The notes beneath the pieces are model-generated. The model was not told the DNA's origin, did no database searches, and saw only the letters and a program-made list of their open reading frames with translations. DNA of 61,357 bases, counting the filler. It is 4 parts of 4 records of this genome, joined end to end, with 100 filler letters (N's around TTAATTAATTAA, not from the genome) between each part and the next. Parts side by side here need not be neighbours in the genome. Positions count along the whole stretch, not along the records: positions 24,118 to 50,714 come from SRR22947725_1572; 3 more parts are not named here. The stretch is one strand, 5' to 3'. Positions 24,118 through 50,151 of this stretch are shown one piece after another; positions within the stretch are counted from its first letter, which is position 1; each line of letters opens with the position of its first letter. A program made the position numbers and the translations under genes.

Positions 24118-24152
24118 CCGTATTCTTTAATTATATTTTCTTTAGTATTCAT
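24118..24152 (-). CDS. rpsO: Probable 5' fragment of ribosomal protein S15
   Basis: MNTKENIIKEY(G) matches the S15 N-terminal pattern; truB-ribF-rpsO order. Only about 11 codons are visible. Confidence 0.7.
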
Positions 24153-43357: not shown

Positions 43358-43996
43358 TTATATGTCCCTTAAATTATTCTTTTTCCACTCTTCAATTTTT
43401 TTATGATTTCCGGACAAAAGAACCTCTGGTACTTCCATATTTTTGTAAATCTCTGGCCTTGTGTATACAGGATGATCTAGTTTCCCATCTGTAAAAGACT
43501 CAGTTAGTAATGATTCTGAATTCCCAAGTGCTCCAGGTATTTTTCTTATCATCGCTTCTAAAAGAAACATGGCAGGAACTTCTCCACCAGATACTACTGT
43601 TTTACCTACAGAAATTTGATAATCAGAGTGGATATCAATAATTCTTTGATCAAAACCTTCATATCGTCCACAAATAATATTCGCTGATTTAAATGTATGA
43701 AGTTCCTCAATTAACGGTTCGTCGAGTTGTTTTCCTGATGGGGTTAAAAAAATATTGATATCTGAAGTTACAGAAGATATTGCATTATCTAACGGTTCTG
43801 GCATTAAGACCATACCTGGTCCTCCTCCATATGGAGCATCGTCGACTTGCCGATAATCACCCAAGCCATACTCTCTTAAATCAGTTGTGGAGATATTGAA
43901 TAAATCATTGTCATGTGCTTTCGATATGATTCCTGTTTCTAACCATGCTTCAATTAAATTTGGAAATAAAGTAACGATATTATATTTTGATAACAT
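43358..43996 (-). CDS. trmD: tRNA (guanine37-N1) methyltransferase
   Basis: VDDAPYGGGPGMV, CGRYEGFDQR, SGGE, LLSGNH. Confidence 0.97.
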   Translation of the reverse strand: MLSKYNIVTLFPNLIEAWLETGIISKAHDNDLFNISTTDLREYGLGDYRQVDDAPYGGGPGMVLMPEPLDNAISSVTSDINIFLTPSGKQLDEPLIEELHTFKSANIICGRYEGFDQRIIDIHSDYQISVGKTVVSGGEVPAMFLLEAMIRKIPGALGNSESLLTESFTDGKLDHPVYTRPEIYKNMEVPEVLLSGNHKKIEEWKKNNLRDI

Positions 43997-45830
43997 TTTC
44001 AGAACTCACATCTTCAAGATTTTTAAATGAAGTGTAAAGTGTATTCCTTAAGTAAGGTATTTTATCAGCATCTTTTATAAGATTTATAAATTCTAAATCA
44101 GTAGTTTCTTGTCCATGATTAGCACCAGAAGCTCTGCTTATATTTTCATTGATTAATGTTCCGCCTAAATCATTTACACCTGACCTAAGAAGAACTTTTG
44201 CGCCATCATGTCCAAGTTTTACCCAACTGGCTTGGATGTTGTCTACTGTGTTATAAAAATAAATTCTGGCAAGCGCATGCATAAGTACAATCTCATCCCA
44301 AGTAGGACCCGGCATACTTTTTCCTTGGAGGAAGATTGGAGACCCCATATGGACAAACGGAAGTGGGACAATTTCTGTAAATCCTTGTGTTTTGATTTGT
44401 ATGCTTTTTATTAATTTAAAATGATTAACCCATGATTCTAAATCATCAATATGTCCAAACATAATTGTTGCCGTAGACTTAATTCCCAACGAGTGAGCGA
44501 CTTCCATTACATACCCCCACTGAGAAGAGGTGATCTTATCATCACATAAAAACTTTCTAATCCTGTCATCAAGTATCTCAGCTGCTGTTCCAGGAAGGGT
44601 TCCAAGCCCTGCTTCTTTAAGTTCTGTTAAATATGTTTCGACAGATTTATTAACTGTACTTGCACCTTGCCATATCTCTAGAGGAGTAAAACCGTGAATA
44701 TGCATATCTGGTAACTCGTCTTTAATTTTTTTTACTAAATCAATATAAAAATCCCCGGTGTAGCTTGGATGAATCCCTCCTTGTAAGCAGACTTCAGATG
44801 CTCCAGTTTGGTGAGCTTCTATAGTTCGTTGTAAAACTTCCTCGGGAGTTAAAGTGTATGGCTTTTCTTTGAGGTCTAAACTTTGCGGACCTTTTGAGAA
44901 ACCACAGAATCCACACTTGTAGTAACACTGATTTGTATAGTTAATGTTTCGATTTTTCACAAAAGTGACTTTATTGCCGTGAACACTTCTTGTTAAATCA
45001 TCTGCAATTTCCGCAACTCTATTCACATATTTTCCAGATGTTTTAAAGAGTTCTAAAAGATCACTTTCGTTTAATGTTTTTGTTTTGTCGAAATTATCTA
45101 AAATCTTTTCAAAATTAGAAGTTTTATAATCAGATAAACTTTCAGAGGAAAAGTTTACTAATTTTGGGATTGGTACTCCGCTACCCGGATACCATTTTGT
45201 GGTTTCTCTCTTGTAACCTCGTACATTTCTTGTTTGTAAATAATTTGTAAACTCTGTTTTTTCTAGATTCGATCGGGCCTCATTGACATCAAATAACGGT
45301 GATAATAATGTTCTCTCATATACTGGTTCTTCTGTCTTGCCCTGTAATTCAAATATCTGGTCTTTGCTCCAGTCTCGTAGAAATAAATCATCTATTCCAT
45401 TTTCAACAGCTTCTATAGCGTCATCCACAGAGTTCGCATAAATCGAGATATTAAAATTGGTAACGCCGTTTATAGATTGTAAAAAAGCAACGTCACTTAT
45501 GTCCTCTATTAATATTGTTGAAGGCTTGTTTCTAGAGATTATCTCTAGTGCATTTTCTTTATTACCTTTGTATCTATAAATAAGTCTTTTTGAATTGTGG
45601 GTTATTTTAGAAGTAACATTCTCATCAGTAATAAACCATGCTGACGAACTTATTGAAAGATCTGAAGCTAGAGTTTGAAATCCTTTAATTAAAAGATTTT
45701 CATAATTAACGGGGATTTCACTTTTTAATGTAAAAGTAGAAGTACCTTCTTTTGCTCTTGAGTTTAAATATATTTCATTGTCACTATCACATGGACGTAT
45801 TCTTAAATATGAGATATTTTTATCTATCAT
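43980..45830 (-). CDS. cofH: FO synthase subunit CofH with a ~220-aa N-terminal extension
   Basis: NRNINYTNQCYYKCGFC, EVCLQGG, PGTAAEIL, NIQASWVKLG, NDLGGTLINENISRASGA. Confidence 0.93.
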   Translation of the reverse strand: MIDKNISYLRIRPCDSDNEIYLNSRAKEGTSTFTLKSEIPVNYENLLIKGFQTLASDLSISSSAWFITDENVTSKITHNSKRLIYRYKGNKENALEIISRNKPSTILIEDISDVAFLQSINGVTNFNISIYANSVDDAIEAVENGIDDLFLRDWSKDQIFELQGKTEEPVYERTLLSPLFDVNEARSNLEKTEFTNYLQTRNVRGYKRETTKWYPGSGVPIPKLVNFSSESLSDYKTSNFEKILDNFDKTKTLNESDLLELFKTSGKYVNRVAEIADDLTRSVHGNKVTFVKNRNINYTNQCYYKCGFCGFSKGPQSLDLKEKPYTLTPEEVLQRTIEAHQTGASEVCLQGGIHPSYTGDFYIDLVKKIKDELPDMHIHGFTPLEIWQGASTVNKSVETYLTELKEAGLGTLPGTAAEILDDRIRKFLCDDKITSSQWGYVMEVAHSLGIKSTATIMFGHIDDLESWVNHFKLIKSIQIKTQGFTEIVPLPFVHMGSPIFLQGKSMPGPTWDEIVLMHALARIYFYNTVDNIQASWVKLGHDGAKVLLRSGVNDLGGTLINENISRASGANHGQETTDLEFINLIKDADKIPYLRNTLYTSFKNLEDVSSENVIKI

Positions 45831-46930
45831 TGCTTTGGATACCCATCCTCATCAATAACATTACTAACTTTTTCTAGAACTGGTGGACTTAACCATTCAT
45901 TATTTATGAAATTTGGATAAACCGGTAATCTTTTAATTAAAGTTTGGCCACTTATTTGCGATAGTTTCTCTAAGTTCTCAATATCAGGCCAAAGATGGTC
46001 GGGATTAACCCAATCAATAGTTTTGGGAGATATGCCACCTAAATCATTTACACCACTCGTAAGATACATTTCTATATCTGGTGACAGATTTGGAGGTACC
46101 TGTAGTGATATTTGTGTTGGGAGTAAAATCCTTACAGTTGCGATAATTCTTAGAAACAAATCATTAATTACCTCCGCATTATTTCTCATCAATGTGTTTT
46201 GTTTAGCTCTAAAATTCTGAAGTATTATTTCCTGAATTGCAGCATTTTCTTTACATGTATTAACTAATTGGACAATATCTTCAATTAATTCGTTTTTAGT
46301 TTCTGTAATTCCAATCAGTAAACCTGTTGTCATGGGGTATCTCATTTCCTGTGCGTTATTGAGTGTTTTTATTCTGAGGTCGATTTGCTTAGTATTTGCT
46401 TTGTAATGTGCTCTCCCCTTTTCTAATAATTTAGGTGAATAGCTCTCTAGCATTAAGCCTCCTGATGGAGAATATTTTTTATAGTTAGAAATCTCATCCG
46501 ATGTCATAAGTCCTGGATTTGCATGTGGGAATATATTGTATCTTTCGTGAATCCTTTTCATATTTTCAGTTAAATATTCGTTTGTAGTTGTGAAACCAAA
46601 GCTATTTAACTGTTGTTTTGCAAAATCCCATTTAACTTCAGGCTTATCACCTAATGTGAATAACGCCTCAAAACATCCTGAAGATTCTCCAACGGATGCG
46701 ATTGATTCAACTTCTTCATAACTGAGATATGTTCCACCTTCTTTTGGTGATTTAACAAATGTGCAATATGCACATGAATCTTGGCATAAAGTTGTAAGGG
46801 GTATAAAAACTTTAGGACTATATGTTATTTTATCTCCAAAATTTACTTTTTTTATCTCAAAAGCTTCTGACGTCAAATCAGAGGTAGGGATTGCTCCAAA
46901 TATATAATTTTCGACTTTTTCTTTTAACAT
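45827..46930 (-). CDS. cofG: FO synthase subunit CofG
   Basis: ITYSPKVFIPLTTLCQDSCAYC, PHANPG, TTGLLIGI, QNFRAK, QVPPNL, DLGGISP. Confidence 0.95.
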   Translation of the reverse strand: MLKEKVENYIFGAIPTSDLTSEAFEIKKVNFGDKITYSPKVFIPLTTLCQDSCAYCTFVKSPKEGGTYLSYEEVESIASVGESSGCFEALFTLGDKPEVKWDFAKQQLNSFGFTTTNEYLTENMKRIHERYNIFPHANPGLMTSDEISNYKKYSPSGGLMLESYSPKLLEKGRAHYKANTKQIDLRIKTLNNAQEMRYPMTTGLLIGITETKNELIEDIVQLVNTCKENAAIQEIILQNFRAKQNTLMRNNAEVINDLFLRIIATVRILLPTQISLQVPPNLSPDIEMYLTSGVNDLGGISPKTIDWVNPDHLWPDIENLEKLSQISGQTLIKRLPVYPNFINNEWLSPPVLEKVSNVIDEDGYPKQ

Positions 46931-47027
46931 TCCTTATAACACTTTAGAGTTAACAAATATTTAATAAATTTAACACAATTTATGTACTGAATCCTTTATG
47001 ATTATAATTTGATTGTAAGAGGTATTA

Positions 47028-48041
47028 ATGAACATTTCGATTTTAGGCTTTGGACGAATAGGTAGAGACCTTCTTAGACAAACTCTCAACAATGACTTAA
47101 TAAATATAGTTTCGATCTCTGATATTGCAGACAAAGAAAATCTTCTTTATTTACTGAAGTATGACACTATTTATGGAAAGCTTGATGCAGAAATTGAAAA
47201 TACTGAAACAGGTTTCAAAGTAAATGGTAAAGAAATCCTATTCAATAACTGGAAAGATGCATCTGAAGCTTCATGGGAAGATGTACAAACCGATATATTA
47301 ATCATATCTACCGGAAGGCAACAAGATATTGATGAAGTAAATGAACACCTAGAAAAAGGGTGCAAACGAGTATTAATAGCATCAACGCCTAAACCTGGAA
47401 GCGATATTCAAATATATGTTCCTGGTGCCAATGATTCAGAGGTTGACTTTTCAGATAAGAAAATTTCACTGGGTTCAAATACAGCAAATGCTGTATCTCC
47501 TCTACTCAAAATTTTGAATGAGAGTTTTAAAGTAGAAAGGGCATTTTTAACAACTGTTCATGGCTACTCAAACTCAAACCGTTTAGCAGATGTAGCTGGA
47601 GAGGGGTTCAGGTTAAATAGAGCAGCTGGAGAAAATATTATTCCTAGTATTACAAAATCTTCTGAAGTAATTGAAACTGTTTTACCATTTATGAAGGATA
47701 AAGTTGCTTCATCTTCCATGACAGTTCCAGTCCCTGATGGAAGTACTGTTGACTTAACTATTGATATTAACAAACCAGCTACCGCAGATGAAGTTAATGA
47801 AGTAATCTCAAAAGCAGTCAAATACCTACCGTATAACAAAGTTCTAGATATTACATTTGACCCAATAGTCTCATCTGATGTTGTTGGTAACTCGCATTCA
47901 GGCATCATTGATGGATTAGCAACTATGGAAATAAACAAAAATAAAATTAAACTACTCGTGTGGTTTGATAACGGATGGGGTTACAGCGCGAGAATAATTG
48001 ATACAATAAACAAACTCGCAGAAAGTAGTACAAATGAATAA
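47028..48041 (+). CDS. GAPDH-family protein lacking the catalytic cysteine (putative pseudoenzyme)
   Basis: Full-length GAPDH fold (GFGRIGR, LLKYDT, TTVH, NIIP, VPVPDGS, WFDNGWGYS), but SLGSNTANA replaces SNASCTTNC. Confidence 0.9.
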   Translation: MNISILGFGRIGRDLLRQTLNNDLINIVSISDIADKENLLYLLKYDTIYGKLDAEIENTETGFKVNGKEILFNNWKDASEASWEDVQTDILIISTGRQQDIDEVNEHLEKGCKRVLIASTPKPGSDIQIYVPGANDSEVDFSDKKISLGSNTANAVSPLLKILNESFKVERAFLTTVHGYSNSNRLADVAGEGFRLNRAAGENIIPSITKSSEVIETVLPFMKDKVASSSMTVPVPDGSTVDLTIDINKPATADEVNEVISKAVKYLPYNKVLDITFDPIVSSDVVGNSHSGIIDGLATMEINKNKIKLLVWFDNGWGYSARIIDTINKLAESSTNE

Positions 48042-49038
48042 CATCGCAATAAATGGTTTCGGTAGAATTGGAAGATCTATTCTTAGGATAATTATTGAAA
48101 GCAATTCTGATCTAAACGTAGTTGCTATCAACGACCTTGGAAATTATGAAAACCTTTCATACCTTTTAAAGCATGACTCAGTTATGGGTGTATTAAATCA
48201 TGAAGTAAAGCTTGATGGTGACATATTAAAAATAGATGAAAGAGAGATAAAATTAGTTTCCGTAGCAGATCCTTCTCAGCTGCCGTGGAATGAATTAAAC
48301 GTAGATATTGTTATTGAATCAACTGGAATCTTTGCAGATAGACAATCACTCGAAAAGCACATAACAGCTGGTGCAAAAAAAGTCGTGTTAACAGTACCAC
48401 CAAAAGACGCTATAGATGCAACTGTTGTACTTGGTGTAAATGATGAAGATATTACAGATGAATCTCAATTAATTTCCAATGCTTCGTGTACAACTAATTG
48501 TTTAGCCCCTATTGCAAAAGTGTTAAATGATAATTTTGGTATAAAATCGGGTTTGATGACAACTATCCATGCATATACAAATGATCAAGCGTTAGCAGAA
48601 ACTACACATAAAGATTTTAGAAGAGGAAGAAGTGCTACACAAAATATCATTCCTACATCAACCGGGGCAGCAAAAGCTGTTGGTATGGTTCTTCCTGAAT
48701 TAAATGGTAAATTAGACGGTATGGCCATGAGAGTTCCTGTTCCAGATGGCAGTGTGGTTGATTTAGTTGTAGAACTTGAAAAAAATGTTTCAATTGAAGA
48801 TGTCAATAATGCTGTTAAAAAAGCTTCGGAGAATGAGCTTAAAGGAATACTTGAATACTCTTCTGTTCCGTTAGTTTCTACTGATATTCTTCAAAATCCA
48901 CACTCAAGTATTTATGATGCATCATCAACACAGCTTTTAGATGGCAATCATATAAAAGTTGTATGCTGGTACGACAATGAGTGGGGTTACTCAAACAGAA
49001 TAGTTGACCTTGTTAATATGCTTGTGAGTAAAAAGTAA
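48034..49038 (+). CDS. gap: Type I glyceraldehyde-3-phosphate dehydrogenase
   Basis: INGFGRIGR, SNASCTTNCLAP, NIIPTSTGAAKAV, WYDNEWGYS. Confidence 0.98.
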   Translation: MNNIAINGFGRIGRSILRIIIESNSDLNVVAINDLGNYENLSYLLKHDSVMGVLNHEVKLDGDILKIDEREIKLVSVADPSQLPWNELNVDIVIESTGIFADRQSLEKHITAGAKKVVLTVPPKDAIDATVVLGVNDEDITDESQLISNASCTTNCLAPIAKVLNDNFGIKSGLMTTIHAYTNDQALAETTHKDFRRGRSATQNIIPTSTGAAKAVGMVLPELNGKLDGMAMRVPVPDGSVVDLVVELEKNVSIEDVNNAVKKASENELKGILEYSSVPLVSTDILQNPHSSIYDASSTQLLDGNHIKVVCWYDNEWGYSNRIVDLVNMLVSKK

Positions 49039-49040
49039 AA

Positions 49041-49454
49041 ATGGATTTACCAAATCCTCCGCAAGCAGTTGGCAATTATATAACGTTAAAAAGAGCAGGA
49101 AATCTAATTTATACATCTGGTCATATACCAATAACCGAATCTATTAAATTTACAGGAAAAGTTCCGAGTGAAGTAAGCGTTGAAGAAGCCTATAAATCAG
49201 CGGCTTTATGTGCGGAGCTAACTTTATCTACATTAAGTACAGCTTATGATTTGCATTCACTAACTCCCCTCAATGTTGTCGGTTTTGTAAATTCAGATCC
49301 TTCTTTCACTGATCATGCTGGTGTCCTAAATGGTTTTACAGACAAATTATCAGAAATCTACGATGAAAAAGCTACTCGATCTGCAGTTGGAGTAGCAAGC
49401 TTACCGTTAAATGTAAGTGTTGAGGTACAGACTATTTTTATGTTAAATGGGTAA
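49041..49454 (+). CDS. Rid (YjgF/YER057c/UK114) family protein
   Basis: PQAVGNY, YTSGHIP, TRSAVGVASLP (conserved Arg). Confidence 0.9.
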   Translation: MDLPNPPQAVGNYITLKRAGNLIYTSGHIPITESIKFTGKVPSEVSVEEAYKSAALCAELTLSTLSTAYDLHSLTPLNVVGFVNSDPSFTDHAGVLNGFTDKLSEIYDEKATRSAVGVASLPLNVSVEVQTIFMLNG

Positions 49455-50151
49455 ATTAGTAGCAATCTCAACAGGGACTCAAAGTGTAACGATGTCCCCA
49501 GGTGAAATAGAATGTTCAGTGCTGAACATGGCATTTGTCACCCTATGTAATAAATATGGTGCCGAAGCCATCATTGTACCTCCACAGGACTTATCTGTAG
49601 ATTTTACAAATGCAAGCTTTGATCGCTTAATCATTACCGGTGGTGGAGATATAAATCCTAAGCGATATGGACAAGATTTAAATGATAAAACTGAAAGGGT
49701 TTCAGATGAAAGAGATCAGACCGAACTTAATCTTCTTCAACTAGCTGAAGATAATTTTATAAAAACATTGGCTATATGTAGGGGCCACCAATTGCTTAAT
49801 GTATACAAAGGTGGGTCCCTACATCAGGATATTAGTGAAAGTTTTGAGACAGATATAGAGCATCTACAAATTAACGAAGCTGCTTCAAAACACATACACA
49901 ATGTCAACATATTAGAAGATACTACTTTAAATAAAGTCTCAGAAAAGAACTTGGTTGCTGTGAACAGTATTCATCATCAAGTAGTTAACGAACTTGGAGA
50001 AAATCTAAAAATTAATGCTATTTCGGAAGATAATTTAATTGAAGGTATAGAAGGTACAACCGATTGGGAAGTCATTGGAATACAATGGCATCCAGAAAAC
50101 TTGCTTGATGACGAAATAACTAATGATTTAATGAAATGGCTATTGAACTAA
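49447..50151 (+). CDS. Peptidase C26 / gamma-glutamyl-gamma-aminobutyrate hydrolase-like glutamine amidotransferase
   Basis: TGGGDINP, AICRGHQ (Cys), VNSIHHQ, IQWHPE (His-Glu). Confidence 0.92.
   Translation: MGKLVAISTGTQSVTMSPGEIECSVLNMAFVTLCNKYGAEAIIVPPQDLSVDFTNASFDRLIITGGGDINPKRYGQDLNDKTERVSDERDQTELNLLQLAEDNFIKTLAICRGHQLLNVYKGGSLHQDISESFETDIEHLQINEAASKHIHNVNILEDTTLNKVSEKNLVAVNSIHHQVVNELGENLKINAISEDNLIEGIEGTTDWEVIGIQWHPENLLDDEITNDLMKWLLN

Follow-up and report, generated by a model that had tools for sequence, protein, structure and literature searches.

The stretch of DNA analysed here (the window; 61,357 nt) contains, within the part derived from SRR22947725_1572 (positions 24,118–50,714; coordinates throughout are those of the whole stretch), two tandem genes of the glyceraldehyde-3-phosphate dehydrogenase (GAPDH) family, termed here open reading frame (ORF) A and ORF B. 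The product of ORF A is a well-preserved GAPDH look-alike without the catalytic cysteine, and its gene lies directly before the sole normal GAPDH gene of a tiny marine actinobacterium (Actinomarina). We refer to any GAPDH paralogue coupled directly upstream to a canonical gap gene informally as X-type. The boundaries of the two genes agree with the first-pass annotation, which had described two full-length gap genes overlapping by 8 nt. Residue numbers not assigned to A or B follow B. stearothermophilus GAPDH, from which we take the catalytic Cys149 and the other positions, together with their presumed roles (Arg195 and Arg231 in the Ps site, Thr208–Gly209 in the Pi site). The features of the locus are as follows.

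47017–47022, + strand: AAGAGG, a Shine–Dalgarno-like motif 5 nt upstream of the start codon (ATG) of ORF A, proposed from sequence alone
47028–48041, + strand: ORF A, 337 aa, GAPDH paralogue of the X type, lacking the catalytic Cys
47478–47480, + strand: AAT, Asn151 of A, at the catalytic Cys149 site; aligns with TGT (Cys152 of B) at 48487–48489
47490–47492, + strand: GCT, Ala, at the second motif Cys (Cys153)
47721–47723, + strand: ACA, Thr232 of A, at Arg231 of the phosphate site; replacement of Arg231 is a family-wide change in X
47973–47975, + strand: GGA, Gly316 of A, at Glu314 of WYDNEWGYS
48034–48041, + strand: 8-nt overlap of A and B, ATGAATAA, with the start codon of B inside the end of A
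48034–49038, + strand: ORF B, 334 aa, canonical type I GAPDH of the partnered subfamily described below; Cys152 at 48487–48489

The two proteins share 38% identity across 331 residues (E 4e-80), and both are composed of the Gp_dh_N and Gp_dh_C domains (for A, PF00044 with E 1.9e-24 and PF02800 with E 6.1e-40). Against TIGR01534, the curated equivalog model of type I GAPDH with a cut-off of 367.2 bits, B reaches 440.8 bits and passes, whereas A, with 274.3 bits, falls short. The AlphaFold2 model of A (predicted local distance difference test score of 86.5 and predicted template modelling (TM) score of 0.87) closely resembles solved GAPDHs, with TM-scores of 0.87–0.89 at 36–39% sequence identity. 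The sole low-confidence region in this monomer model is the S-loop (residues 181–203), the element that forms the core of the GAPDH tetramer. Compared with type I GAPDH (GapA, EC 1.2.1.12, TIGR01534; for example 1GD1 from Geobacillus stearothermophilus and 8WWZ, B. subtilis GapB), A has the same domains, length and fold and keeps the NAD-site residues, His176 and the S-loop, whereas it lacks both cysteines, has replacements at Arg195, Arg231, Gly209 and Glu314, and falls short of the model's threshold. Close relatives of A are nevertheless named in public sources as active ‘type I GAPDH’.

Active site and conservation within the class

Occupying the place of the catalytic cysteine in A is an asparagine; alignment codon by codon bears out the AAT (47478–47480) that had been noticed opposite the TGT of B (48487–48489), and the second motif cysteine, also said to be missing, is indeed replaced by alanine (GCT). 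The reported differences in the phosphate site (NIIPSITKS in A versus NIIPTSTGA in B, and MTVP versus MRVP) are likewise present, and to these can be added Arg195 to Leu and the Glu314 to Gly change. Taken together, the anion sites of A carry Leu for Arg195, Thr for Arg231 and Lys for Gly209, with Thr208 retained. Aligned with B, A keeps what the first-pass annotation had listed as intact, namely GFGRIGR (the GxGxxG motif), the acidic residue of the NAD site (Asp32), the histidine of TTVH (His176) and an uninterrupted frame, as well as Asn313 and Tyr317.

Because no thioacyl intermediate could form and both anion sites are lost, A is predicted to be neither a GAPDH nor an Epd and, judged by its residues, is incapable of either chemistry; the earlier claim that it is catalytically dead in both respects is therefore supported. 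Epd, itself a GAPDH paralogue with a changed role, retains the catalytic Cys; A differs in having none and scores far below the cut-offs of the Epd models (215.3 bits with NF010058, cut-off 539; 199.6 bits with TIGR01532, cut-off 530.55). With its pocket residues kept, A still looks able to bind NAD(H).

The changed active site is shared by other genomes. In 26 aligned loci (23 genomes of the genus and 3 from other families of the class Acidimicrobiia), every A-type gene encodes LGSNT[AS]NA and every B-type gene NASCTTNC at the same place, so that the asparagine of A is neither a matter of chance nor a sequencing error; against the latter the first-pass annotation had already argued from coordinated changes. 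Among 12 A-type proteins with identities down to 40%, 70 columns are invariant, and the surroundings of the active site are strictly kept in the class (Ser-Asn-Thr, His or Lys at position 176, and NRAAGENIIP). His176 and the NAD-site residues are invariant in the A-type alignment, save for the replacement of His176 by Lys in family f2. In three f2 sequences (L014, L015 and P0191), this lysine lies in TVVKAMSN and Asn149 is retained, so a basic residue persists at the position of the general base.

Selection on both genes is strongly purifying. Median Nei–Gojobori (NG86) ratios of nonsynonymous to synonymous substitution rates (dN/dS), the check that had been proposed for this locus, are 0.097 for A and 0.070 for B, calculated over 130 of the 666 locus pairs of 37 low-GC loci (those with 0.05 < dS < 1.5; the pairs are not independent of each other).

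A profile of the 12 A-type proteins was searched against 301 genomes of the class, including the unpublished G256 (an f2 carrier), G217 and G275 (both non-carriers). The result is bimodal: 107 genomes have matches of at least 437 bits, and the next matches, below 400 bits, are the adjacent canonical genes. With G110, in which the A gene is cut by a contig end, 108 genomes carry A-type genes, each with a B-type neighbour where this was checked. Carriers make up 60 of 65 genomes in f1, the family with the window's genus (the other five are 74–83% complete and have no GAPDH match of any kind), and 35/35 in f2, 8/9 in f10, 2/7 in f15, 2/2 in f34 and 1/1 in f40; in the remaining sampled families of the class, the profile found no A-type gene. 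Between the stop of A and the start of B, the spacing in 40 distinct class loci is −8 (18 loci), −4 (4), −1 (1) or 0 (15), and is thus zero or less in 38 of 40, the other two values being over-long start calls.

Genomes of the genus are about 0.6–1.1 Mb in size, and in nearly all of them A and B are the only GAPDH matches, which makes B the housekeeping enzyme and the cell's sole canonical type I GAPDH. That A is retained at the first position of the pair in a streamlined genome, as had been pointed out, holds throughout these genomes of around 1 Mb, where A always comes first and is under purifying selection.

That A might be a decaying duplicate, or an artefact of assembly or sequencing, is scarcely credible in view of this conservation. 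Frame breaks do occur: in one of the 60 f1 carriers (G044; L157, 1500–1515) the A gene is split into two frames at an A6 run, through a read error or else a genuine frameshift, and the X gene of one Bacteroidales locus from the cross-phylum scan below (L125) is also frame-broken. Against decay stand the intact frame and identical motifs across genus and class, where every aligned member has Asn at the catalytic position, the dN/dS of about 0.10, the presence of A in contigs of independent RNA and DNA data sets, and a rate only 1.7 times that of B. The invariant motif, the intact frames in the class and the low dN/dS together rule this explanation out. The pattern that the first-pass annotation had named as a refutation, close relatives with Cys or with frameshifts, is likewise not what the genus and the class show, the G044 break being the one exception among the f1 carriers.

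The X–gap pair across phyla

The distribution of cysteine-less gap genes upstream of canonical gap, which had been singled out as worth mapping, extends from the class to many phyla. In the catalytic column of the best 150 representatives drawn from 1.84 billion proteins, 130 have Cys, and the others carry N, S, A, V, P or G; a 142-row tree places 22 non-Cys rows together with a single Cys row in one clade (99% support in the Shimodaira–Hasegawa-like approximate likelihood ratio test). A cross-phylum scan, with one genome per species and an alignment of ten members from outside Acidimicrobiia as query (a sample biased towards relatives of the query), returned 80 loci. X lies directly upstream of canonical gap in 77 of these, of which 72 are clear tandem pairs and 5 have a frame break or contig end (L088, L091, L092, L125 and L138); the other three are two solo canonical genes (L130 and L140) and a contig start (L135). 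Among the loci examined, no X was seen without a canonical gap directly downstream. According to record titles, the carriers belong to Acidobacteriota/Thermoanaerobaculia, Holophagales, Desulfobacterales, Multivoradales, Eisenbacteria, Krumholzibacteriia, Planctomycetota, Bacteroidota, Neomarinimicrobiota, Lentisphaeria, Bdellovibrionales, Halioglobus and Acidimicrobiia. Halioglobus japonicus (L133) is a cultured carrier, the Thermoanaerobaculum locus (L081) is from a metagenome-assembled genome, and Cys-bearing X genes are found, among others, in Desulfobacterales and Thermoanaerobaculia loci. A shares the traits of this family: it is upstream of gap on the same strand with an 8-nt overlap, has Thr for Arg231 and Gly for Glu314, and groups with the upstream paralogues.

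The catalytic position itself is variable in X. The 72 upstream genes have Cys (32), Ser (17), Ala (11), Val (4), Asn (4), Pro (2) or Ile (2) at position 149, and the Cys/non-Cys label changes state at least six times on the tree. Loss of the cysteine, which the first-pass annotation had taken as the defining event, is therefore not what defines the family: with 32 of 72 sampled genes keeping it and at least six losses, loss of catalysis is secondary and repeated, and the function of the X family, given seven residues at this position, is independent of the thiol.

Other positions are more telling. When the 72 genes are combined with 10 from the window's class, position 231 is N in 69, T in 7, S in 3, A in 2 and R in 1, the sole conserved switch relative to B; position 314 is G in 65, A in 7, S in 6 and T in 4, and in none is it E. 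Columns that are invariant in canonical GAPDH and variable in these 82 X genes are Gly97, Cys149, Thr151, Asn152, Gly209 and Ala210. Retained are His176 in 79 genes, Asp32 in 75 (with Glu in the other 7), Asn313 in 63 and Arg195 in 58. Of all regions of X, the S-loop is conserved best, with a consensus fraction of 0.74 overall and, in the class, of 0.82 versus 0.84 for B. The replacement of Arg231 by Asn or Thr, the loss of Glu314 and the decay of the phosphate loop thus appear to be the older changes shared by the family, and loss of the cysteine a later one.

Some members depart further. Nine Bacteroidota X genes (L114–L116, L121–L123, L132, L134 and L141) no longer have Asn313 (WYH...) and carry GFGEIPRH or GFGEVGRH as a degenerate dinucleotide-binding motif; with the dinucleotide motif and Asn313 both degenerate, NAD binding is probably lost in these proteins, and the pair is still kept. 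In one Thermoanaerobaculia locus (L138, 2471–5208), three overlapping GAPDH-like frames follow X, one with Pro/Gln at the Cys/His columns; its canonical gene looks frame-broken, or the assembly is faulty. In the set of representative proteins, two very long ones, P0124 (2089 aa) and P0130 (1455 aa), contain four and two GAPDH-like stretches, respectively, and could be multi-GAPDH fusions or gene-calling artefacts.

The canonical partner has a history of its own. The trees are quick or FastTree trees with midpoint roots and local support values in place of bootstraps, and the order of events is read from them. In a 164-row FastTree of the pairs, the 82 partnered B genes form one group with 100% local support. 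When other GAPDHs are added, X is monophyletic, set off by a branch whose local support is 100%, and partnered B genes stay apart from solo genes, although not as a single group, as two rows from Planctomycetota fall elsewhere. In 12 genomes of the same class that have no pair, the solo gap genes lie outside the partnered-B group. With solo gap outside and X on its own fully supported branch, the pair is an old unit with a GAPDH subfamily of its own, and in the carriers of the class it takes the place of the usual gap. All 82 partnered B proteins carry Leu-Thr-Val (B residues 119–121; window positions 48388–48396), where most other GAPDHs have Ile-Ser-Ala; this signature precedes a conserved Pro near the NAD site. 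The topologies of X and B mirror each other, with pairwise distances correlated at r = 0.82, which by itself is no evidence of contact, being expected for linked genes. Relative to their B partners, Cys-bearing X genes evolve at a distance ratio of 1.22 and Cys-less ones at 1.67.

A substrate site that drifts, a fold, S-loop and, in most lineages, NAD pocket that are kept, and a gap gene that is always downstream suggest a pseudoenzyme acting with its active paralogue. Alternatively, A may stand on its own, probably as a homotetramer, and have a new activity that is independent of cysteine and serves the same pathway as gap; it could be an NAD(H)-dependent oxidoreductase for a phosphate-free substrate, with His176 as general base, or a small-molecule binder. 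The NAD-site residues, intact and invariant in the class, would suit such a protein, as would the invariance of Asn149 and its neighbours across proteins only 40% identical, the acid/base-capable residue at position 176 (His, or Lys in one family), a dN/dS near 0.10, and the Cys, His176 and Arg195 that Cys-bearing X genes of other phyla preserve. It fits less well with seven different residues at position 149 family-wide (C, S, N, A, V, P and I), with an unconserved phosphate loop, or with the Bacteroidota genes that keep the pair despite GFGEIPRH in place of GxGxxG and an altered Asn313; moreover, every X in the loci examined has canonical gap directly downstream, and families share no further conserved neighbour of the pair (L057 and L062 have different flanks). 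We consider a free-standing activity unlikely, though it is the main rival to a role alongside Gap.

Genomic surroundings and expression

Downstream of B in the window are two further genes on the same strand.

49041–49454, + strand: RidA/YjgF-like gene (PF01042), 2 nt after B
49447–50151, + strand: peptidase C26 / class-I glutamine amidotransferase-like gene (PF07722), overlapping the RidA-like gene by 8 nt

The order cofG (divergent), A, B, RidA-like, C26-like is that of 35 of 36 loci of the genus; the remaining locus ends 17 nt past B. The RidA-like gene follows B in 35 of 36 loci and the C26-like gene is present in 16 of 36, most of the others stopping about 500 nt past B, just after the RidA-like gene. 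Beyond the genus, the conserved unit is A–B alone, with different flanks in two other families (L057 and L062).

RNA libraries from four studies yielded contigs that cover A and B, and single contigs span 47027–49721, 47029–49501 and 46700–49995. As these contigs cross the A/B and B/RidA junctions, they are compatible with co-transcription. Contigs of two studies start at 47027 and 47029, within one base of the A of the ATG of ORF A (47028), with adapter sequence beyond; contigs cannot show RNA ends, and these starts could at most hint, weakly, at an mRNA that is leaderless or has a very short leader, although the AAGAGG motif lies just upstream at 47017–47022. A promoter scan gave 17 promoter-like sites versus 13.9 expected, an uninformative count, and a terminator scan found no terminator-like site between A and the C26 gene.

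Upstream and divergent lie genes with similarity to those of cofactor F420 synthesis. CofG (45827–46930) is a separate gene that overlaps by 4 nt the gene for a CofH-like radical SAM protein (43980–45830, − strand; 616 aa), in which Radical_SAM spans residues 296–474 and CofH_C residues 482–601, and about 290 N-terminal residues have no Pfam match. A link of the pair to F420 through these cofG/cofH genes was considered and rejected, as their position is conserved in the genus only and the flanks of other families differ. For the same reason, neither the RidA-like nor the C26 gene, which lie outside the wider unit, is tied to A. In the f34 locus (L062), the A–B pair is on the opposite strand, between the uvrC–rapZ–CofD-family (yvcK-like) genes and pgk, and is inverted relative to the usual actinobacterial gap–pgk order; the CofD-family gene beside it was rejected as a sign of F420 because of its uvrC–rapZ context.

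A candidate subunit of a mixed GAPDH tetramer

From these observations we propose, with about an even chance of being right, that A is a non-catalytic partner of Gap (B), one that may bind NAD(H) and forms part of a mixed tetramer. The two proteins would be made together from their overlapping genes, in keeping with the shared RNA-library contigs, and A would then join B in a mixed tetramer in which only the B subunits turn over substrate. What the A subunits would contribute is interface and, possibly, a regulatory site that binds NAD(H); candidate effects are altered cooperativity, stability, or redox or NAD(H) sensing. We infer NAD(H) binding by A, its physical association with B and the stoichiometry of that association, and any regulatory effect.

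Structure prediction for the complex of A and B gave a score of 0.58 versus 0.48 for one unrelated control, in a setting where GAPDH pairs score by their likeness to solved homotetramers, and weighs neither for nor against binding. A scan for isologous contacts, in the form of concerted residue changes in X and B, returned six weak columns, patternless and confounded by phylogeny.

Several points weigh against a partner subunit. Adjacency of genes does not by itself demonstrate a complex, and contigs from RNA libraries, which may contain DNA, do not prove a single transcript. The strict class-wide conservation of the active site in A is also compatible with a new role in catalysis or ligand binding. 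Finally, the 32 of 72 X genes that keep Cys, together with His176 and Arg195, evolve nearly as slowly as B (1.22 versus 1.67 for those without Cys); the ancestral X may therefore have been an enzyme, and perhaps still is one in the Cys lineages.

A might also act on Gap without a stable place in the tetramer, as a transient assembly or protection factor or as an inhibitor that caps dimers, or else have an unrelated moonlighting function. Co-inheritance and gene coupling speak for this as much as for a partner subunit, and GAPDH has non-glycolytic roles in nucleic-acid or protein binding. Overlapping or abutting genes are, however, more typical of stoichiometric partners, the S-loop and fold of A are conserved as in tetramer-forming GAPDH, and nothing points to a specific other partner, which makes this reading improbable.

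For a partner subunit, the nearest heteromeric precedent among GAPDHs is the chloroplast A2B2 enzyme (which we take to be PDB entries 2PKQ and 7Q53), built from the paralogous subunits GapA and GapB. Both of these are catalytic, and GapB has a regulatory C-terminal extension. The likeness lies in the two paralogous GAPDHs; the differences are that the chloroplast heteromer is demonstrated, whereas here it is proposed, and that A lacks the catalytic residues, has no extension (337 versus 334 aa) and is coupled to its partner in a bacterial operon. A working model for A is provided by the prozyme of trypanosomatid S-adenosylmethionine decarboxylase, a dead paralogue reported to activate the enzyme by heterodimerization (PMC6221367). 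Both cases have a dead paralogue under selection beside an active enzyme; the prozyme differs in fold, pathway and domain of life, and its activation by heterodimerization is demonstrated, whereas A is known from its gene.

Full-text literature searches, which do not reach subscription-only papers, turned up no account of a bacterial GAPDH paralogue that lacks the Cys or is partnered, and neither did passages of a 2025 review of aldehyde dehydrogenase superfamilies (PMC12041015). What is new is that many X genes keep the cysteine, the proposed order in which residues were lost, and the separate subfamily of partnered B.

The retention of A in streamlined genomes of about 1 Mb argues that it earns its place. 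GAPDH, one of the most intensively studied enzymes, is a model for cooperativity and for redox regulation through its catalytic cysteine, and is used as a marker gene. A partner role would account for the A-type genes that bear the label ‘type I GAPDH’, a name that can distort copy counts when metabolism is reconstructed. Repeated loss of the cysteine, preceded by an older one at the phosphate site, would offer an ordered picture of the passage from enzyme to pseudoenzyme. More tentatively, and with some doubt, glycolytic GAPDH in a large number of bacteria spread over many phyla, including the abundant marine Actinomarina, may be an obligate two-gene enzyme rather than the textbook homotetramer, whose old, co-inherited X subunit was disabled first at Arg231 and Glu314 and then dropped the cysteine independently at least six times, its NAD(H) pocket making for permanent half-of-sites behaviour and X possibly serving to sense redox state or NAD(H), or as a scaffold proof against oxidation. 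If A is a conserved non-catalytic partner, encoded beside the sole GAPDH of many bacteria, the pair would add a new quaternary form to a core enzyme of glycolysis and provide a natural experiment on half-of-sites reactivity.

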